DNA of 64,000 nucleotides, taken from assembly GCA_051047955.1 (NCBI GenBank), contig JBPGPT010000007.1:496001-560000 (forward strand), written 5' to 3'. The notes beneath the pieces are model-generated. The model was not told where the DNA came from. It searched no databases and was given only the letters and a program-made list of their open reading frames with translations. The translations under genes were made by a program, and so were the position numbers. Positions 14,829 through 64,000 of this stretch are shown piece after piece (position 1 is the first letter of the stretch; each line of letters begins with the position of its first letter). This DNA is from Cystobasidiomycetes sp. EMM_F5 (taxonomy: Eukaryota).

Positions 14829-16037
14829 TATGCAGCTCTGTTTTGCGTTTGTTGCTGTCTAATACGCGCCAGTGTTACCGAAATTCGGCGGACTCAGTCT
14901 GGCTTTCGACGAGGCTTTCTTGAAAACGCTAGGCAGAGTTCCAGAGCAATGACCGTGCAGAGAATCTTGGATCCGTGTACTGGCTTTGCGGAACTGCGCG
15001 TCGCCTGATGGGTTCGAAGGGCGCGTAAAGTCGTCAACCACGATCCGCTTGACGGGACTCTCTATGGAACTGGCCGTGGTGCCATCCAGCACACGTTTAG
15101 TTGTACACGCAAGCAGGAATCAGTGACCCAGCATCCGGTTTCCGAGCAGTTGACGCGGTGCCAGCCGTGATTGGATCGACTATCGCCTTGATGGCTTCAA
15201 CAGCTTTTATAACCAATACAACGCTTGTAATTGCGACAAGTGCATCGTGTCTGAATAGTCTGCAGCAGAGAATGAGTTACTGCGCGAGCTTCGTTGCCCT
15301 TGAGCTCCACCAGACCCCGATCAGCGACTTTGACATTTTCATTCAATTCTCGTTGCAGGTTTCCTCTTCTTCAACGCATAAAAATACAAACGGTCCATTC
15401 AAAAAGCACATCCACTACGAGACTGCGCGGTGCCCTTATGGGGCTCCTCTGCGCTTGGGCTGTCTGCAGTCACAATACCTGGTCAATGATCATTCGCGAT
15501 GCCGTCTTGGATTCGAAGAGGGAATACGTATGGGCGCAGTCGCAACCCTTTTGGGAGGAACGGCGGCGCTCGACGTGCACCTGCAGGGCTTGGGTGCGGT
15601 GGTCTCTTTGACGCGAGTGCTTACGTGGCTCCTCGTCGTCCCGTAGAGACTGGCGCAATGCTTTGCTGGATATTCATTCGGACTGAAAATTCAAATGCTG
15701 GATGGGCGTTTCAGCACTAGACATTATAAGTGTTCCCGTGTATTGATAGTCGCGCAGTAGTTGGGAATATCAGGCTTATTCTGCGTCGCCGGTGTCGATA
15801 AGAGGGCTTCTCGAATTGCGAGTTGCTTGACTGATTCCAACCAACCATGCTGTTCTGTGCTTGGAGTATTATGCGACTATGCCTGTCTTAGCTCCATCCT
15901 CGCTCCAAATATGCCTACTCGTTTGCCAATTACCTAGACCTTGTCGCCGTGTTGACGTCGAAACATCGCGTCAAGAAGTCGCATAAAGATAATTAACTAA
16001 ACTCCTCCAGACAGCTAGCCAGCAGCTTCGGCGTACA

Positions 16038-41960: not shown

Positions 41961-44366
41961 ATGTCGGAGCATGAAGGCAGTCACGAGGGAGAGAAGCGGG
42001 AGGCTCATTCAGCAGCAATAGAAGCGGGAGATGGAGTAGCAGACCACGATGTGAAGGACGACGACCAATTCTCAGCGATACCATCAGAAGCAGCACCCGT
42101 CGACAACGCGCAAATGGACGCGAATGAATCGCAAACAGACGCGAAAGCACGAGCGGACGACAAAGAAAGCGAGGAAATTGAGAGTACCCATCTTGACAGT
42201 GACAACGATGAATCAAAGTCATCCCAAACTTATAACGCGTCCGGAGAGCTTGAAAACGAGCACGAACAACCAACCCCAAACATTCCGCATGATACTGCTT
42301 TGCGCCCAACTTCACTACCAAGCCCCGAGACTCCTTCCAAGAATACTCATGCACTCACAGACGACGATGCACTGCTGAAACAGCAAGAAACACCAAGACT
42401 AAGCAGTCATGGCAGCTGGCGCGACTCTGTGGCGACAACATCTGCGCTCGACAGCGTTGCCCTGACGGATACGAGCAGTATTGCGTCTCCTCCTACCTCT
42501 CCTATCTCTGCATCAGACTTCTCCTTCGTTGCACTCGCGGGCGTTGTTGAGCAAGCGACGACGAATGGTCATAATGTACCCTCTCTGGCTCTGCCTGAAG
42601 ATGACACAGCAAGCAGATCAGAGCAGCCTAGCCCATCAGGCGTGAGCTCGCACGACTATGACTTTCTACGGCATCGCGCAGACTCGACGAGCGTCGCGAT
42701 GGCAGAACATCTGGCAAACGGGCAGAGGCGGAGTCAGATTGTCGACCAGGAGATACGCGCTAGCTTCAATAGGATGAAGGAAGATGCTCAGCACTATGCG
42801 TCCGAGCATGATGACAGTACAGTCAGTGCAAAGGACCTCGGAACTTCTAATGACTATGCGAACGGTATACAAGCCATCGATTGGGATTTGTGGGGCAATA
42901 TTATGAACGACTACGAGGGAATGGCAAGGAACAGTCGTAAGCTCAATCCTTGAGCCGTTCGTCAGTATTCCATCTAATTTCGCTGTTTTCGATAGCCCGC
43001 CAATTGTCCAAAGCGATACAAAACGGGATCCCGCCAGCGTTGAGAGGGATGATGTGGCAGCTCATGTCTGCGTCTAAGGATCCAGAACTAGAAACAGTAT
43101 ACTCGCAGCTGATGAAGCAAAATTCGCCGCACGAAAAGCAAATTGTGCGGGATCTCAATCGGACATTTCCGTCGCATGAATACTTCAAAACTGGATCAGG
43201 CGTCGGTCAAGGTAATCTCATGAACGTTGTCAAAGCCTACAGTCTGTATGACGAAGAAGTAGGATATTGCCAAGGCATGGCATTCGTGGTCGGGCCACTA
43301 CTGCTGAATGTGAGTGGACTTGCGCTAACAGGACTAGATAGCTGCTTACGTTCTCTCCGAATCAGATGCCAGACGAAGAAGCCTTCTGCGTTCTGGTTCG
43401 CCTTATGAAGTCTTACGATTTACGGTCGCAGTATCTGCCAGACATGCCAGGTTTACAACTCCGGCTATTCCAGTTTGACAGACTGCTTGAAGAGCTGTTA
43501 CCCGCTACTTTCCTTCATCTCCTTCGACAAGGCATCAAGTCCTCAATGTACGCCTCCCAATGGTTCTTGACACTCCTAGCATATCGCTTTCCCCTCGAAT
43601 TGGTCTGCTCTGTCTTTGATCTCATTTTCGCCGAAGGCGTTGAAGCAATCTTCAGGTTTGCTATAGCACTGATGAAGCGAAACGAAGCCCGGCTACTCGA
43701 GCTTGACTTCGAACATTTACTCGAGTTCCTCAAGAGTGGCTTGTTTGAGCACTACAAGGTGGTTTTATGCTACCGATCATGCAGTCTTAAGCCGAACTGA
43801 GATATCGGTCCGCCAGCTTGACCTCGAGAAGGAAGCTGGTGACGCTGACTCAGACACGTACTGCGCACGGACCTTCTTGCGGGAAGCCCTGTTTGTCAAA
43901 ATAACGCCCCTCATGTAAGTCACGCATCGCACACCTCGCACAGCTTCCCCCTGATACCACCAGCAGGCTCGATCAATTTGCCAATGAATGGACTGAGATG
44001 TGCCGACAGCAGACTGCGCAAAGTCGGGAGGTAGAGCAACTCCGCGAGATCAACAGAAAATTGTCAAATCAGGTCAGAGGACTAGAACATAGCTTAGCGC
44101 AGATCAATCAAGAACATTGCGATCTCGTCAAGCAGGTTGTACAGATCAGGCTAGACAAGGAAGAGCTCGAAGACGAGCTTGTCAAGTGCAAGATGGCTCT
44201 GGCGCAAGAGTCTTTGGTAGGTTTTGAAACAGATTGTTCGTCTCTTTCTGACTGTCGTATTCTGCAGTTGCGAGAGGAAGGAAGAGGATCAAGAGGATCA
44301 GTCTCTTCATTCGTCAGTTCGAGCAGTATGTTGAGCGGGCGTACAAACAGTGAAGGGGTGTCATGA
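41961..44366 (+). CDS. GYP5: TBC-domain Rab GAP (Gyp5/EVI5-like)
   Basis: IDWDLWG, GIPPALRGMMWQ, IVRDLNRTF (R finger), YCQG (Q finger), MYASQWFLT, C-terminal coiled coil. Confidence 0.88.
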
Positions 44367-53525: not shown

Positions 53526-56020
53526 TTATGGCTTCTTTTCGCCTTCTGTGGAGGAGGACGACGAAGAATCGGAAGATGGAGCGGCATCACCTGCTGGCGG
53601 GGCGCCGCCGTTGGCCTTTGCACGCGCCTCGTAGACCTTCTGGAAGAAGCCAAGGGACGCTTGTTGAGATTCGTTGAGCTTCGTGCGGATAGATTCCGAG
53701 TTGACTGCCGCGTCTCCCGCCTGGCCCTTCATTGCAAGTTCTCGGAGCTCCTTGAAGAGCACCTCGAGCTTCTCCTTCTCAGCCGCATCAATGTGCTCCT
53801 TGAACTCATTCATGGCCTTCTCCGTCTCTGCGACAAACGAGTCTGCCTGGTTGGCAGCCTCAATGACGCTTCTTCGCTCCTTGTCGGCTTCGGCATTCGC
53901 CTCTGCTTCTGAAATCATGCTCTCAATCTCGCGGTCACTCAGACCAGACGAAGCGGCAATAGTGATGGACTGATCTTTGTTGGTCGCACGGTCCTTGGCG
54001 GAGACGTTGACGATACCGTCGGCGTCAATATCGAATGTGACTTCGACTTGAGGAATACCCTTTGGCGCCGGTGGGATACCGACGAGCTGGAAGTTGCCGA
54101 GCATCTTGTTGTCGCGGACGAGCTCTCGCTCTCCCTGGTAGACCTTGATCTCTACGGCAGTCTGGCCATCAGCAGCTGTGCTGAACGTCTGCAGTCACCA
54201 ATCGATCGTCAGAATGTTCTAGAAGAGCAAAACCGAAAGCAATGCAGCCTACCTGGGACTTCTTGGTCGGGATGGTCGTATTTCTGTTGATAAGACGAGT
54301 GAAAACACCACCGAGAGTCTCGATACCGAGCGAGAGGGGAGTAACATCGAGGAGGAGGACATCTGTGACTGATCCAGCGAGGACGGCACCTTGAATAGAA
54401 GCACCAACAGCGACAGCCTCATCTGGATTGACTCCCTTTGAAGGCTCACGTCCAAAGATGGACTTTACAGTCTCGGTAACGCGTGGCATACGAGTCATTC
54501 CTCCTACGAGAATGACATCCTCGATCTCAATTGGCTTGACCTGAGCATCAGACAGAGCCTTCTTGCATGGATCGACAGTCTTGCTGATTAGCGGCGATAC
54601 GAGTTGCTCGAATTTAGATCGTCCGAGCTTGAGGTTGATGTGTTTGGGACCAGATGCGTCGGCAGTGATGAAGGGTAGGGAGATTTCAGTCTGCGCGGTA
54701 GATGACAGCTCAATCTTTGCCTTTTCAGCAGCTTCTCGGATTCGCTGGATGGCCATCCTGTCCTTTGAGACATCGATGCCAGACTCCTTCTTGAATTCAT
54801 CGACGATGTGCTTTACGAGGATGATATCGAAATCTTCTCCACCGAGGTGGGTGTCACCGTTTGTAGACTTTACTTCAAATACGCCCTTGCTCATCTCGAG
54901 AATGGACACGTCGAATGTACCACCCCCAAGATCGTAGACGGCAATGACGCGAGAGTCGTTGCGGTCTAATCCATAGGCAAGAGCAGCGGCGGTAGGCTCG
55001 TTGATGACACGACGTACGTCAAGGCCGGCAATCGTACCCGCGTCCTTTGTCGCTTGTCGCTGTTGATCGTTGAAATAGGCAGGTACGGTGACGACGGCGT
55101 GTTTTACATTTTTGCCGAGGTAGCTCTCTGCAGTCTCCTTCATCTTTTGGACGACAAACTGTGGATAGTGGAAAGGACGCCGTCAATACAGTTACTTTGT
55201 CAGACTGACGTCCACATCACTCACTGCACCAATTTGCTGGGGAGAGTAACTCTTCCCTCTCGCCTCGAGCCAAGCATCACCATTCGAGTGGTTTATAATC
55301 TTGTATGGCACATTGTGAATGTCCTTTTGCACCTCTTTGTCGGCATACTTTCTCCCAATCAGGCGCTTTGTGGCAAAGAATGTGTTTTCGGGGTTGACGA
55401 CTGCCTGACGTTTAGCTGGGAGACCGACGACCTGTTGAGATAATGAGTAGAGACGAAGGGGTCAAATGAGCGTCTTGGACTGTTGCATGAGACCTAGTCG
55501 GAAGGGCCTCCCTACTCACACGCTCGCCGTCTTTTGTGAATGCGACTACGGAGGGTGTTGTTCGAGCACCTTCAGAGTTTTCCAGTACTCGTGGAGTCTT
55601 GCCTTCCTGTAATTATCAATGATACATAGCCAGTCAGATCTCCAAACATGACCAGTCTGACCATGATGCAATTCGAGCTCACCATGATGGAGACACACGA
55701 GTTTGTCGTTCCGAGATCGATACCGCTGTGGGTGTGAGACGAAGATGAGGCAGACCGAGTGTCAGCGTGCGTCTACGTAAATTCTCATACACCCCTCGAC
55801 CTCCATTCCAAATTTTTTTAAAAAAAGAGGCCGACTGGGGGTCATCGATTTTACGCACATGACTGGGCCGGAGACCTTGTCGGAAGCATGTCGGATCTGA
55901 AGACGAAGAGGTATGTGAGTAAACTTGCGACGACTGCCGGCAAGACCATCCTACCTGGAGCGCTGGCCTGAGTGCGTTGGCCCTGCTTGCGCGGAGTGAT
56001 CTTGCTGCGACGGAGAGCAT
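53526..56020 (-). CDS. SSC1: Mitochondrial Hsp70
   Basis: Presequence [50 protein letters not shown]. Confidence 0.97.
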
Positions 56021-56375: not shown

Positions 56376-59290
56376 ATGCCCTCGCTGGTCCCCGCTTCCA
56401 CTCCAGCAGACAGTCTCCTGCGCCAGCTCGCCGACGCAGTGCACGACCAAGCCCACGTCTTTGCGGCCAGCCAGTCAGAGCACATCCAGCAGCTAGCACT
56501 CGACGCGACAAGGCAGCTGTTTGAGCAGTGTGAGTGGGGGTGTGCAATCGTTTATGCATTCTCTGACAAATTCTCCCGCTTCATGGGCGTGTTCGTGCAG
56601 CCCTCAGAGACGAGTCCATCTACCTCCCCTCCCTAGCAAGTCTTCTCGTCCAACTACACGAAAATGGATATACAAATGGAGATGCACAGATTTCGACAAG
56701 GGCGTCATCGTCCAAATCCAACGGCAGATCAGCGTCAAAGCCCTCCACCTCCACACCCTCCGTCAAGTACATCATGGCTAGCGATCCAACATTTGGGCAG
56801 ACGCCGCTCAGTGAGCTGTACGTTGAGCCGCAAGGGCATGCGGCAAAAGACGAGGCAGGAGAGGAGGAATTGGAGATGGAGAGCATGGCCGATCAGATGG
56901 TGTGGGAGCAGCTCAGGATTAGAGTAGGCAAGAGTCTCGACCTGTTTTCGGCACTGACAGAGATGGAGAGTGATGATGATGGAGAGGATGGGCAGGGGAG
57001 GGGGAGTGATGACGAGGAGGAGGAGGAAGCAATCGACAGCGATGAGGATGTGGATGTAGATGTGGATCAAGACGAGGATGAACAGCTCGATATGGATGAC
57101 ATCGCCGACGACTACAACGACAAAGATGAGTCCGAAACAGAATCTGAAGAATTCGACGAGCAGGAAGAGGATGACGACCTGCAAGACTCTGAAGACGAGA
57201 CACACGCAGGTCCAAGCACTAGTCACCCAAAGACTCTGCCTAAACCATACTTTGCGCCATTGCGTGATCCAGAAGAGGAGGAGGGAGATGACGATGACGA
57301 CGAGGACGATGATGAAGCTCACCAAATTACTCTAGACTACGATATACAAGACTCTCCTATTCGAAAGAACAAGAAGAAGCAAAGCACACCAAAACTAACC
57401 AAAGGAAAATCCGAACTAGACGCTGGCTTTTTTGCTTTGGACGACTTCAATTCGCAGATTCTGAATGGGGAAGAAGAGATGGATCGATATATGAAATCCG
57501 GAAAGAGCAAGAGCGTAAACGATACTACTCTTCGTGGTCTCGATGGATTGGCAGACGAAGACGACGACGAGAATGAAGATATCGATTACTTTGCTCCGGC
57601 CGGTCCTTCTCGTTTACGACTCGGATCGTACGAAGAAGATGTGGATGAAGAAGAGGAGCATGAAGGAATTGCCCCGGAAGATATGCGATATGATGATTTT
57701 TGGCAAGCGCCAAAACAGTTCTATGGGGACGCGAAACAGAAGAAACGCGTCAGGGCGGATGGAGACGATGCTGCGGATCATGATCCGACGTCCCGACACA
57801 GGCAAAAGGACAGAAAAGGCAAAGGAAAGCAGAGGCAGGACGAGTCTTTGCGTAGGTCAGAAGATGAAGGACGTTCTGTAGCTACATCCACATCCACCTC
57901 AGCAGCAGCAGCAAAGAAGAGAAGAGTCAGCTTCAATTCCGACGTCAAGGTGCAGGAATTCGAGTCCGGTTCGGCAAAGCAGAGTGCGGTAGCTGCACTT
58001 GTCAAACAGATTGGCATGAAGGCCGCCCTCAAGAAGCTCAGTCAGCCGGGTTATGATCCGGAGGCTGAGGATGATGATGAGGATGATGAGGGGCTCGACG
58101 ATGAGGAAGGAGATGACGACGAGGGCGAGGAGGATGAGGATGCTATTGACATTGAGGAGGACAGTCAAGATGGCGAAGAGGAGGGCGTCGACACCGACGC
58201 CGATGCTCGTACTATGCAGCGAATACATCGCGATCTGCTGGCAGACGATGATGTGGACATTCCTCAGTCAAATGGCAAGAAGAAGAACAAGAAAGCGCAA
58301 CAGAGTCGCCATGAACGTCGCATGGCTGCACTGGAAGAACAGATTGATCAATTGGAGCAGGAGAACGTCGCGGAGAGAGAGTGGGCTATGCGCGGAGAAG
58401 TCGGATCTAGAGCACGGCCTGTCAACAGCTTGTTGGAGGAAGATCTCGAGTTTGATCAGGTCGCCAAAGTGGTACCTGTCGTCACAGAGGAGACATCACA
58501 AACACTTGAAGACAAGATCAAGAAGCGCATTCTTGATGTAAGCCTTGTGTAACGGAGGCGGTTCTGCAAGTCTGACTTTGTCGACCATCAGGACCAATTC
58601 GATGACGTTGTCCGTCGACGCGCTGTCGAGAGCAATCCTTACCTCCCTTCCAAGCTGCTCGACATCAAGGACACCCAGTCCGACCGATCTCTTGCTGAAA
58701 TCTACGCCGATGAATTTGCAGCCGAGCGAACGAAGGCAGCTGGAGGCGACGAAGCTCTACCCGAAGTGGATGCAAAGCTTGCCAAGGAGCACGAGAGCAT
58801 TCGCAACATTTTCGAGGAAGTATGCAATAAGCTCGATGCGCTCAGTAATGCTCACTTTACGCCAAAGGCTGCACAGACTGTCATCACTACCATTACAAAC
58901 CTCCCTTCAATCGCAATGGAATCTGCTTTGCCCACTGCAGCCTCTAGCGCAACTATGCTTGCGCCCGAAGAGGTCTACGCACCTGCTCAACGCGGTACGC
59001 TCACGAGCAAGAGCGAAATGACGCCTGCGCAAAAGAAGGCAGCCCGTGCTTCAGCTCGCAAGGCTCGTGCGCAAACGCAAAAGAGTATAGAAAAGTACGG
59101 GGGTCGCACAAGCTCTACGAAAAAGGCAAAGGAGCAGGCTATGAACAGCCTCATTGGCAAGCGAGGAGTCACAGTCGTAGGAAAAGGCAAGGCGGCAAAG
59201 AGTGCGCTAACTGGAAAGAAGCGCAAGGAGAATGTACCACCGCAGTCGGCTGGTCTGCCGTCAGGTTCTGCGTCTTCATTCAAGCTGTAG
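56376..59290 (+). CDS. MPP10: U3 snoRNP protein Mpp10
   Basis: Acidic region, QMVWEQL, W.MRGEV..RARPVNSLLEEDLEF, LDALSNAHFTPK, APEEVY. Confidence 0.92.
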
Positions 59291-61320: not shown

Positions 61321-62486
61321 TCATTTGCTAAGAAACGACAGAATGTCCTTCACTGCTGGCCTGCTAGTTGCGCGCGCTCCCTTGCCTTCTCGTTCCTGGC
61401 CTGTGCAACCTGCTGAGCATCTGATATCGCTGTTTGCAACTTCCCCTCTTTGGCCAATGCAACCAAGACCGCATGGACGAGTCCGAGATGGTTGTGCCGC
61501 CTCATTGTGTTCTCAAACTTTCACACGCGGCACTTAGTCCATTGCCGAGCATAAGGAATTTGCACCCAGACTTACTGCCCATCGCCTCTTCTTGTCCAGT
61601 TCATCTTGCAGTCTGACTTGCATATTGTAGATATCGGCACTCGTGTCAGCTGCCAGGTCTGTCCCAGTATCTCCGCCAGCTGCGCTTCCTTGAATAGATT
61701 GCAAGGCTTCCAGCTTCTCCCGCAGTACTGCCTCTTGATCCTGGCAAATGGCCATAAGATTGAAGTTGATTTCGCTGTCTCCGTACGCCGCGATGCGTTT
61801 TTCGATAACGTCTCTAGCGCGATCTGTCCACGTAGACGACACTTTCCCGTGCGAGAGAGGATACTGTTGTAGACCATCGAGCTCGTATAGCTCCCCGTCG
61901 ATCGGGACGTACGCTATGAAGTGATACGCATCCTCCTTTTCTCGCTCATCGTCTGGGTCTCGAGTATGTTCGAAGGGATCTGACCTCGCAAAGCTGTTGT
62001 GGACTGCGGAAAAGATGTAAGATTAGACTATTACTGATGTATGCAACACCACGCACCCTCTCGTATCTTCTCAGAATTGCTTACTGCCCAGCCTCTACTT
62101 GGAGGATCCAGCGCAGTACTGAAATTGCGGAGACTCTCGAGTTCATTGCCCAATTCAACAGACTGTCCAGGAGCGGGAGATATGTTCAATACTGCATTCA
62201 GTATAGCCATTGTAGCGCAGGCGTTGTTGATGACTTGGTGTGCGAAATAAAAGTTGGCATCGCTATTTGGCGTGCCTCTATCGGTATTGCTGGTAGAATC
62301 GACATTTGCCGATGTATCAACGTATTTGAAGAGGAATATAAGCGCATAGATTGGTTGTATGGATGCTAGAAGGGCGGGGTCGAGACTGTATAATTCGCTG
62401 AATTCCAGGCCGCGTACACCCAAATCTTCCAGTAATGCAGAGAAAATGGAGGGGTCGCTTTCAGTCAAAGACCAACCTTCAGACAT
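61321..62486 (-). CDS. UCH37: Ubiquitin C-terminal hydrolase UCH37/UCHL5 (peptidase C12)
   Basis: WSLTESDP, QVINNACAT (Cys), YHFIAY..YELDGL (His/Asp), C-terminal ENTMRRHN. Confidence 0.92.
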
Positions 62487-62601
62487 GCTCGGCAGTGTGG
62501 TGTCAGTAGTGTATGACGCGATATTACGTCCTCTCAGAGTTTCATTCGGTTAGGCGAAAGGGCAGAGCGGACAAAAATGGATCAACCCAATAAAAATCAG
62601 T

Positions 62602-62606
62602 AAAAA
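62602..62606 (-). terminator. Pol III T5 terminator of tRNA-Ala
   Basis: TTTTT directly after A73; further T5 runs at 62592-62596 and 62573-62577. Confidence 0.8.
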
Positions 62607-62736
62607 TGGATCACAAGGGCATCGATCCCTTCACCTCCCGCATGCTAAGCGGCTGTCAAGAGCATTTTAATCAGCTGAACGTTTTTGGTGATCGTGGCCA
62701 TGTGCTTACGCGCTCTACCACCTGAGCTAGCAACCC
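62607..62736 (-). tRNA. tRNA-Ala(AGC) with 57-nt GT-AG intron at position 27/28
   Basis: Exon1 62736-62710 (27 nt) plus exon2 62652-62607 (46 nt) = GGGTTGC TA GCTC AGGTGGTA GAGC G CCCGC TT AGC AT GCGGG AGGTG AAGGG ATCGATG CCCTT GTGATCC A; G3:U70 and A73 Ala determinants. Confidence 0.9.
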
Positions 62737-62760
62737 GATGAAAGAGCAGTCTTATTTTAG

Positions 62761-62771
62761 TATATATATAT
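62761..62771 (-). promoter_or_regulatory. TATA element upstream of tRNA-Ala
   Basis: (TA)5 at about -25 to -35 from tRNA +1. Confidence 0.55.
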
Positions 62772-63273
62772 CCAGCAATTCGCCGGGGAGCGGAAGGCAC
62801 GCAACAGCTGCAGGAGGTTTGAAGCGACCGAACTATAGATGGATGTACCCTGGACAGATGATTTACAAGCAGTATATGGGTAAATGCAATCTCGATGACT
62901 GAAGTCGCCGAAAGTCAAACAAATCCGGCAAGCCGTAATCAAAAGCACCGCGCAATGGAGCACTTCTGCATTACAACGACTGCAATGACTGTAGACCATC
63001 ATGTACCCGCAAACAACTGAGAAGAACTGAAAGATCTGATATAATCAAAGCCTGACTTGAAGATTCAGGACCACGCACTGTAAAGCAACGCAAAAAGAAG
63101 CATGAACTGCAGGTTGCCGGAAAGCATATGGCTGGACGAAAGATTGCGGCGCCAAGGCTCGCAGTGAGTTTGTGGTCATTCACACCGGAAACTGCGAACG
63201 ATCTCAAGTGACGTCCGGCAGGGTGTGAAAGATACTAATGGGAAATCTGGTCGACAAAATCGGCCAGTCTACG

Positions 63274-64000
63274 CTAGTCCGTATCTTCGGTCATCTTCGC
63301 GTCGACGTGTTCAGTGCTTGCGTTTTCGTTTGTCTCGGGGCGAAGTCCGTGCTGCGGGTCTGGAAAACTTATGCCGATCGAATCGAGGTATGCAAAAATA
63401 GGGGTGGCGTATTGGCTCAGCTGCACTGCGGCAGCTTCGTACCACAGCACATTCGTCAGACGCGGACCACCGCGAGTAGTAGGACGAACGGTCTCTGCTG
63501 TACGAAGTCTGAGAACTGGACTCCACTGCCTAAGCTCCATTTGATCTGTGTTCGGTATTTGCAGCACCAGGAATAGGACGAAATGACCGGGGTGTTCAGA
63601 ATCTTTGCGCAAGCAAGCTCTGCAGACGATGCCATCTTCCGTGACAAATTCCTCTCTCTTTCCCAGTACTCGCTGCAGGTTTGCGGTGACAACCTTGAAT
63701 ACAAACCTTCTGAATTTACCCTCTTCGACAGTACCAGAGTCACTTGACTTCGATCTTTTCTGCACTCGCGCTCGTAATGGTTGGCCTGGCAGGCATATGC
63801 CGTTACCTGGCATTGCGAATAGGACATGCCCATTTTGATGATTGCGCCCGTTGACAACAAGCTTGGCCGGTATCTGCCACCATTCACTTCGTATGAGATC
63901 GACCAGCTGTTTGACGGTCTGGACAGACCTCTGCTTGTCATTCGGACCCCTGATGATTTGCAATGCAGACTGCTGTCCGGAAGATGAGCTTGCTGTGGGA
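63274..64000 (-). CDS. Hypothetical protein, 3' part (open to window end)
   Basis: >240 codons without a stop, frame open to position 64000; no recognised domain. Confidence 0.5.
   Translation of the reverse strand, partial: PTASSSSGQQSALQIIRGPNDKQRSVQTVKQLVDLIRSEWWQIPAKLVVNGRNHQNGHVLFAMPGNGICLPGQPLRARVQKRSKSSDSGTVEEGKFRRFVFKVVTANLQRVLGKREEFVTEDGIVCRACLRKDSEHPGHFVLFLVLQIPNTDQMELRQWSPVLRLRTAETVRPTTRGGPRLTNVLWYEAAAVQLSQYATPIFAYLDSIGISFPDPQHGLRPETNENASTEHVDAKMTEDTD

Follow-up and report, generated by a model that had tools for sequence, protein, structure and literature searches.

The subject of this analysis is a split gene for an alanine tRNA, tRNA-Ala(AGC), on the minus strand of contig JBPGPT010000007.1 (assembly GCA_051047955.1, filed under Cystobasidiomycetes sp. 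EMM_F5). All coordinates refer to the window that was analysed, i.e. the whole stretch of 64,000 nucleotides (64 kb) from position 496,001 to 560,000 of this contig. The gene occupies positions 62607-62736 (130 nt) and is interrupted by a 57-nt insert of spliceosomal type (62653-62709; 44% G+C), which separates tRNA nucleotide 27 from nucleotide 28 at the upper end of the anticodon stem. Exon 1 (62710-62736; 27 nt) comprises tRNA nucleotides 1-27, that is the 5' strand of the acceptor stem, the D-arm, G26 and C27, and includes the A-box region (approximately 62729-62718). Exon 2 (62607-62652; 46 nt) comprises nucleotides 28-73, with the anticodon AGC at 62646-62644, the B-box/T-arm region at approximately 62628-62618 and the discriminator A73 at 62607. 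The insert begins with the 5' splice site GTAAGC (62704-62709), contains a branch-site-like GCTGAT (62670-62675), whose putative branch A at 62671 lies 18 nt from the 3' splice site, and ends with the 3' splice site CAG (62653-62655), which holds the first AG 3' of this branch A. A TATATATATA run, in the following called the TATA run, is located at 62761-62770, 25-34 nt upstream of tRNA position 1 (-34 to -25). On the other side of the gene lies a terminator region (62573-62606) with three T5 runs, of which the first (62606-62602) directly follows A73 and the other two are found at 62596-62592 and 62577-62573. All these features are on the minus strand. The preliminary description of the locus, which had placed the tRNA at 62736-62607 and had it split after C27 by the 57 nt of 62709-62653, is thus borne out.

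Once 62709-62653 has been excised, and only then, ARAGORN calls a tRNA-Ala(agc) of 73 nt with the G3:U70 pair and A73. Besides these identity elements, the product shows the cloverleaf, the conserved nucleotides of the D-loop and the T-loop and a 7-nt anticodon loop with AGC, which are the sequence features expected of a functional tRNA-Ala(AGC). A eukaryotic tRNA-Ala(AGC) from a metagenome contig (L006) is identical to the spliced product at 57 of 73 positions. The D-arm, the anticodon loop and the T-loop are the same in both, and the differences are confined to the stems. Since the T-loop of the tRNA from L006 is identical, the odd-looking T-loop of the spliced product is normal for this isoacceptor.

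The ends of the insert can be derived from the tRNA itself. We made 3,965 arbitrary deletions at the locus (exon-1 lengths of 5-69 nt, deletions of 30-90 nt, any dinucleotides at the ends) and submitted the products to ARAGORN. This program is a tolerant caller and still reports a tRNA for 23 of the 3,965 deletions. Only the combination of a 27-nt exon 1 with a 57-nt deletion, however, gives a product in which all 21 stem positions are paired, 18 by Watson-Crick and three by G-U pairs, and the minimum free energy (MFE) structure of this product (-27.6 kcal/mol) is identical to the cloverleaf. Every other product of 73 nt has at least one stem mismatch. The boundaries of the insert are therefore forced by tRNA structure alone, and the ends obtained in this way are GT and AG. 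Both the earlier statement that the junction cannot slide and the predicted 73-nt cloverleaf with a perfect anticodon stem upon GT..AG removal have been confirmed by these results.

The preliminary description had also proposed a genome-wide search for split tRNA halves joined by GT-AG inserts. On the scale of the 64-kb window, each GT..AG segment of 40-120 nt on either strand was excised and ARAGORN was rerun. Among the 38,589 excisions, a tRNA that spans the junction arises a single time, namely at 62607-62736, which is thus the sole such locus in the window. The splice signals were evaluated in a similar manner by means of a composite signal, which consists of a GTRNGY donor, a YAG acceptor and a CTRAY motif 10-40 nt from the 3' end. 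The window contains 127,886 57-mers, of which four carry it: the insert in the tRNA gene and three others, which bridge open reading frames and are probable mRNA introns. In first-order Markov simulations, a window contained on average 51.7 composite segments with lengths of 45-75 nt (31 lengths), and the Markov chance of the composite signal in one segment with preset ends is about 1.3e-5. It is hard to see how these figures could arise if unrelated tRNA-like fragments happened to flank a GT..AG segment by chance or through an assembly artefact. Although we are dealing with one locus in one assembly, such an accident would have to account for the one successful removal in 38,589, for a perfect 21-pair cloverleaf with 57/73 identity to a real tRNA-Ala(AGC) and for splice signals with the low Markov expectation just given, and we consider its probability to be very low.

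The insert also resembles the mRNA introns of the same organism. To obtain reference introns independently of splice motifs, we required that both flanks belong to the same Pfam family and that the profile coordinates are contiguous across the junction. When the 88 flanks of 44 short GT..AG candidates were scanned with Pfam, five introns could be verified in this way: one in a RabGAP-TBC gene (43310-43365, plus strand, 56 nt; profile positions 2-34, then 35-166), one in the Mpp10 gene (58538-58591, plus strand, 54 nt; 240-365, then 367-510), two in Hsp70 sequence (54189-54252, minus strand, 64 nt; 270-419, then 420-568; and 55159-55224, minus strand, 66 nt; 42-115, then 117-266) and one in a gene for an ubiquitin hydrolase of the UCH type (62004-62056, minus strand, 53 nt; Peptidase_C12 profile 1-140, then 142-211). 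For the remaining 39 candidates, at least one flank lacked a family match or the profile coordinates did not continue; we left these out as unverified without regarding them as false. Among the candidates set aside is one in a Peptidase_C97 gene, where the profile runs to 80 and resumes at 85 but with an offset of 98 residues. An expectation-maximization intron model built from 158 groups of GT..AG candidates bridging open reading frames (20 of them 'confident') was not used for scoring, as its long introns (109-125 nt) look unreliable.

The five verified introns have lengths of 53, 54, 56, 64 and 66 nt and a G+C content of 42-52%. Their donors are GTGAGT, GTAAGC, GTAGGC, GTGAGT and GTGCGT, all of which conform to GTRNGY, and the donor hexamer GTAAGC of the insert recurs exactly in the Mpp10 intron. 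All five end with CAG, and 16-41 nt before their 3' end they possess a CTRAY motif in the form TCTGAC, GCTAAC or TCTAAT. The insert in the tRNA gene, with its unambiguous GT/AG ends, extended donor, suitably spaced branch motif, CAG acceptor and host-typical length, falls within the range of these introns, as had been claimed for its GTAAGC, GCTGAT and CAG signals and its length. Judged by its sequence it is a spliceosomal-type (U2-type GT-AG) intron. We regard the observation of a split tRNA-Ala(AGC) gene as confirmed at the level of the DNA sequence, and there is little doubt in our view that the split gene is real and that, by every sequence test applied, the insert is a spliceosomal intron of the local type.

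As a side observation, open frames antisense to the Hsp70 sequence (53949-54287 and 54988-55437, plus strand) match the Pfam family NAD-GH (PF10712; E-values 1e-16 and 1e-22). This family presumably arose from the antisense strand of Hsp70 genes, and the frames are probably not genes.

A spliceosomal-type sequence does not by itself settle which machinery would remove the insert. It could also be a non-canonical tRNA intron that is cut by the tRNA splicing endonuclease and closed by a ligase, in which case its GT..AG ends would be coincidental. Introns in or near the anticodon stem, for example at 29/30 and 30/31, are described for archaea, and further non-canonical positions for Cyanidioschyzon merolae and nucleomorphs, in the relevant passages of a review of tRNA introns (PMC4090602). 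The properties of the insert do not match such an origin. A canonical intron of the SEN endonuclease is located at 37/38, one nucleotide 3' of the anticodon, and the insert is located at 27/28. An intron of the bulge-helix-bulge (BHB) type requires two 3-nt bulges with a 4-bp helix between them, and in the required geometry at most two of the four central-helix pairs can be formed over all 16 bulge placements. Neither the MFE structure nor the ensemble of the precursor contains a BHB motif. The insert alone is almost unstructured (-2.8 kcal/mol), and the only good pairing at the junction, between insert nucleotides 2-6 and tRNA nucleotides 30-34, joins the strands in an order that does not suit a BHB. 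Moreover, the fungal tRNA endonuclease measures the distance from the tRNA body to its sites in the anticodon loop, which does not agree with position 27/28, and the combined splice signals would be expected by chance at only about 1e-5. Removal by the endonuclease therefore appears very improbable to us, and the description of the insert as lying at a position other than 37/38 and outside the SEN and BHB classes is upheld.

The pairing just mentioned deserves attention of its own. On the minus strand, TAAGC in the insert (62704-62708) is perfectly complementary to GCTTA in the tRNA (62645-62649). In the precursor, the 5' splice site could be hidden by this pairing. One may also speculate that the pairing helped the 5' end of the intron to dock on the tRNA before reverse splicing.

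If the insert is a spliceosomal intron, the next question concerns the polymerase. An intron of the U6 type would interrupt a gene of RNA polymerase III (Pol III) with intact promoter and terminator and would itself contain no Pol III terminator. At the locus, the A- and B-box regions, the TATA run and the T5 terminator are present and the longest T run of the insert is two. The earlier statements that the A box, the B-box-like T arm, the upstream TATA and the T5 terminator are intact and that the insert lacks any T4 run are correct. The TATA run is a putative promoter element for Pol III and/or for RNA polymerase II (Pol II).

The terminator region contains an exact direct repeat of 12 nt, which comprises the last seven nucleotides of the tRNA plus T5 and is found at 62602-62613 and 62573-62584 (minus strand) with a period of 29 nt. 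The second copy within the 62573-62613 region is preceded by the first six nucleotides of the tRNA. The arrangement looks like a short tandem duplication or like the relic of a second, internally deleted tRNA copy, and owing to this duplication the locus carries three T5 runs.

The tRNA gene is situated in a 790-nt spacer between an upstream gene, whose stop codon is at 63274, and the UCH gene (61534-62486), and all three are on the minus strand. The UCH gene has its start codon at 62486, 121 nt beyond the 3' end of the tRNA in the downstream direction, and contains its own 53-nt intron (62056-62004). This neighbourhood allows for a variant in which the spliceosome acts on a Pol II transcript that is driven by the TATA run, starts near the 5' end of the tRNA and maybe extends into the UCH gene, so that the insert would behave like an intron of a 5' untranslated region. 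RNase P and RNase Z would subsequently release the tRNA from the spliced transcript, or else the sole role of the tRNA-like leader might be to regulate the UCH mRNA. The same-strand position of the tRNA 121 nt upstream of the UCH gene, the distance of the TATA run, which suits either polymerase, and the fact that spliceosomal splicing is normally coupled to Pol II are all compatible with this variant. On the other hand, the three T5 runs right after the tRNA have the layout that a Pol III terminator should have, a UCH leader would be burdened by the upstream ATGs of exon 2 and of the insert, and excision of the tRNA would leave the UCH mRNA uncapped. We thus consider a Pol II transcript unlikely, albeit clearly more plausible than removal by the endonuclease.

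The best explanation for the locus is that a nuclear tRNA-Ala(AGC) gene of a basidiomycete has acquired a genuine U2-type GT-AG intron at position 27/28. From the features described above we infer that the gene is transcribed and by which polymerase, that its transcript is spliced, that the product functions and how the intron originated, and the proposed course of events is as follows. The gene would be transcribed from its own promoter, most likely by Pol III, through the 57-nt insert up to the T5 terminator. The resulting precursor would be unable to form the anticodon stem. The spliceosome would recognise the GTAAGC donor, the GCTGAT branch site and the first AG downstream of it, and the insert would leave as a lariat. 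This would join C27 to C28 and thereby create the anticodon stem of 5 bp, and ordinary end-processing and addition of CCA would complete the tRNA. We see roughly an even chance that the insert is indeed removed by the spliceosome to yield a working tRNA, irrespective of whether the transcript is made by Pol III or, in the variant mentioned above, by Pol II. For the more specific proposal, in which Pol III makes the pre-tRNA-Ala(AGC), the intron between nucleotides 27 and 28 is released at GT/AG as a lariat and maturation of the tRNA depends on the spliceosome, the chance would be just short of even.

Several points weigh against splicing to a working tRNA. Pol III transcripts possess neither the cap nor the polymerase II tail that normally promote recruitment of the spliceosome. 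The unspliced precursor prefers a fold that is not tRNA-like by 13.5 kcal/mol (MFE of -37.9 kcal/mol versus -24.4 kcal/mol with the cloverleaf arms enforced), and this fold might hinder processing. In the exons, CGC precedes the donor and C follows the acceptor, a context untypical of a proto-splice site. Absence of a T4 run from the insert is weak evidence for read-through by Pol III, because three of the five verified mRNA introns also lack T4. In addition, tRNA-Ala(AGC) genes are normally multi-copy in most eukaryotes, so that the copy hit by the intron could be dispensable and silent, with perfect exons simply as a result of a recent insertion.

This last point leads to the most serious alternative. 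According to it, the locus is a dead or dying copy, in which an intron or intron-derived DNA was recently inserted into a redundant tRNA-Ala(AGC) gene; the gene would be untranscribed, or its precursor would stay unspliced and be degraded, and the exons would have remained intact through too little time or through gene conversion among the copies. Besides gene redundancy, the non-tRNA fold and the unusual exon context, it is in favour of this explanation that non-canonical interruptions of nuclear tRNA genes are mostly presumed to be pseudogenes, as stated in the part of the tRNA-intron review that deals with them (PMC4090602), and that no related split gene was found among the 15 loci of the pattern scans described below. 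Yet signs of decay are entirely missing: all 21 stem pairs, the identity elements, the D- and T-loop nucleotides, the terminator and the TATA run are intact. The same holds for the three splice signals, with the first AG after the branch being the correct one. Furthermore, an intron that had arrived by reverse splicing would by construction be removable from exactly this context. Taken together, we regard a dead copy as a real contender, somewhat below an even chance. Concerning the source of the insert, a search of the window for a donor copy gave a next best match of only 12 nt, and there is no target-site duplication in the sequence at the junctions.

The pattern scans looked for the end of the D-arm, followed by a gap of 45-75 nt and by the Ala-AGC anticodon loop with the start of the variable region; GT..AG ends of the gap were not required. 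No similar split tRNA-Ala was found among the 11 loci retrieved from metagenome contigs and the four loci retrieved from a collection of prokaryote genomes, which is a further point against a spliced tRNA. Of the 11 metagenome loci, ten are fortuitous matches or normal tRNAs of a different kind, and the remaining one (L006) is a tRNA-Ala fragment beside a full copy; none of the four loci from the prokaryote collection is relevant, one of them (L014) again being a fragment plus a full copy. This negative result carries little weight, since these two collections are poor in fungal DNA. In both L006 (1412-1513) and L014 (93-191), which are unrelated public contigs, a truncated 5' fragment of tRNA-Ala(AGC) directly precedes the complete copy. 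L006 is a metagenome contig and L014 is an 864-nt contig of low coverage, which is filed under a bacterium but is probably eukaryotic contamination. As judged from their sequences, the two arrangements are partial tandem duplications and not introns.

There is precedent that the spliceosome can splice a Pol III transcript. In its passages on this subject, a review of U6 RNA (PMC5855946) describes that the single U6 gene of Schizosaccharomyces pombe belongs to the Pol III genes and contains an intron which the spliceosome excises, that many fungal U6 genes contain up to four canonical introns, and that mRNA-type introns are also present in genes for U2, U5 and U1 small nuclear RNA (snRNA) and ribosomal RNA (rRNA). 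The U6 precedents in fission yeast and other fungi, to which the preliminary description had referred, are thereby documented. The section on introns in non-coding RNA genes of that review makes no mention of tRNA. As far as these passages go (Tani and Ohshima 1989, 1991; Canzler et al. 2016, as cited in PMC5855946), the U6 introns are comparable to the tRNA insert in that their sequence is otherwise unconstrained and that they are found in fungal lineages including yeasts of the Pucciniomycotina. They are proposed to have originated by reverse splicing and subsequent reverse transcription, and we propose the same route for the tRNA insert. In contrast to the tRNA-Ala gene, which is known here as sequence, splicing of S. 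pombe U6 has been shown experimentally, and U6 introns recur across many species whereas the tRNA-Ala insert is a single locus. The rationale of proximity to the catalytic centre, which was put forward for U6, is inapplicable here, as a tRNA is not part of the spliceosome.

Introns of U3, a small nucleolar RNA (snoRNA), are another close comparison. The portion of the study by which they are known to us (PMC5832005) describes normal spliceosomal introns in non-coding RNA genes with a median distance from branch to acceptor of 15 nt, compared to 18 nt here, which cluster at few conserved positions in many genomes; U3 and U6 are named there as the only small structured RNAs so far known to be often interrupted by introns. 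Basidiomycetes are well represented among the hosts of introns in U3, in U2, U5 and U1 and in rRNA, but tRNA is on none of these host lists, as far as the respective sections of the sources show (PMC5832005, PMC5855946).

The known classes of tRNA introns differ from the insert in decisive aspects. Canonical nuclear tRNA introns, which are removed from 37/38 by the SEN endonuclease and a tRNA ligase, likewise interrupt the anticodon arm and have to be removed for function, and with 57 nt the insert lies inside the length range of 6-133 nt reported in the corresponding part of the tRNA-intron review (PMC4090602). However, the insert is at 27/28, blocks the anticodon stem before splicing, lacks anticodon-intron pairing of the right geometry and has GT..AG ends with donor and branch consensus. 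The introns of archaea, nucleomorphs and C. merolae also occur outside 37/38, including the anticodon stem, and are also missed by standard finders, but they are defined by a BHB, which does not form here, and the present host is a fungus with ordinary spliceosomal introns of like size and signals. In the passages of the same review on non-canonical introns of eukaryotic nuclear tRNAs, such introns are listed only for nucleomorphs and C. merolae, where they depend on a BHB, and other such cases are presumed to be pseudogenes (PMC4090602). Group I and group II introns in bacterial or organellar tRNA genes are similar insofar as a tRNA gene is cut by an intron class that is also found in protein-coding genes. 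They are self-splicing ribozymes of hundreds of nucleotides, though, and an assignment of the insert to either group was rejected on the grounds of its 57 nt, its folding energy of -2.8 kcal/mol and the lack of any Rfam intron match up to an E-value of 10.

In the full-text literature searched, with subscription journals lying mostly outside this search, no published case of a nuclear tRNA gene with a spliceosomal intron was found, and the earlier remark that such a case is not known to be described agrees with the literature covered. The stem 'spliceosom' has no occurrence in the tRNA-intron review (PMC4090602), a study on missing tRNA genes (PMC8007984) contains nothing relevant, and the one phrase match for 'spliceosomal tRNA intron' was dismissed, since the text reads 'non-spliceosomal tRNA introns'. 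A paper from 2025 (PMC12530127) treats spliceosomal, tRNA and XBP1 introns as completely unrelated classes in the passage concerned.

The presence of the insert renders the gene invisible to the tools that we applied. ARAGORN detected no tRNA anywhere in the 64-kb window, and none in the unspliced context of 351 nt either, with or without its intron option. With Rfam, no tRNA was found at gathering thresholds or at an E-value of up to 1 over the window, and positions 62540-62800 searched alone gave no match at an E-value of up to 10, neither to tRNA nor to an intron family. The suspicion that standard tRNA finders would likely miss this gene has hence proved right for both programs. The sole sub-threshold Rfam match in the window is to sR17 (15319-15378, minus strand; 27.6 bits versus a gathering threshold of 36; E-value 0.026). 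It is similar to a box C/D snoRNA and may be an unannotated snoRNA.

Concerning the host, the protein-coding genes of the window point to the Pucciniomycotina. Among named organisms, the DEAD-box helicase has its best match in Mixia (48% identity), followed by Sporobolomyces, Rhodotorula, Microbotryum and rusts, and Mpp10 has its best matches in Rhodotorula species. The closest sequences overall are environmental ones, to which the helicase is 58-63% and Mpp10 about 40% identical, and for the helicase the margin of Pucciniomycotina over other basidiomycetes is small. A close relative with a name is missing from the protein collection searched. The host thus belongs to a deep and poorly sampled basidiomycete lineage, probably within the Pucciniomycotina. 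Rhodotorula hasegawae is the source of the reports on U2, U1 and U5 snRNA introns whose titles appear among the references of the U6 review (PMC5855946), and this species, now named Erythrobasidium hasegawianum, is a member of the Pucciniomycotina. In the relevant part of a survey of fungal genomes, this subphylum is described as rich in introns, of which each kb of coding sequence contains 2.80 on average (PMC8476143). The placement of the host is suggestive because of the snRNA introns of E. hasegawianum and because of the intron-rich subphylum.

The textbook view is that spliceosomal introns belong to transcripts of polymerase II and to a few snRNA and snoRNA genes, and that nuclear tRNA introns are cut at 37/38 by a protein endonuclease. 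The split gene described here would add tRNA, as a new and so far unproven class of host, to a known phenomenon, i.e. mRNA-type introns in small non-coding RNA genes. If our interpretation is true, an mRNA-type intron would be seen here in a tRNA gene for the first time, and a tRNA in need of the spliceosome would cross the textbook divide and tie translation capacity to splicing capacity. It would also point to reverse splicing as a way for introns to enter abundant cellular RNAs that do not belong to the spliceosome. It is posed as an open question, in the corresponding section of the U6 review, whether introns are inserted into non-coding RNAs because of their closeness to the catalytic centre or simply because of abundance or structure of the RNA (PMC5855946), and a tRNA as host would favour abundance. 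Since ARAGORN and the tRNA model of Rfam are blind to this gene, the genomes of lineages that carry them may seem short of tRNA genes that they in fact possess. The excision of GT..AG segments followed by a tRNA finder is a cheap procedure that could be applied genome-wide, and more split tRNA genes may be hidden in this little-sampled basidiomycete lineage.

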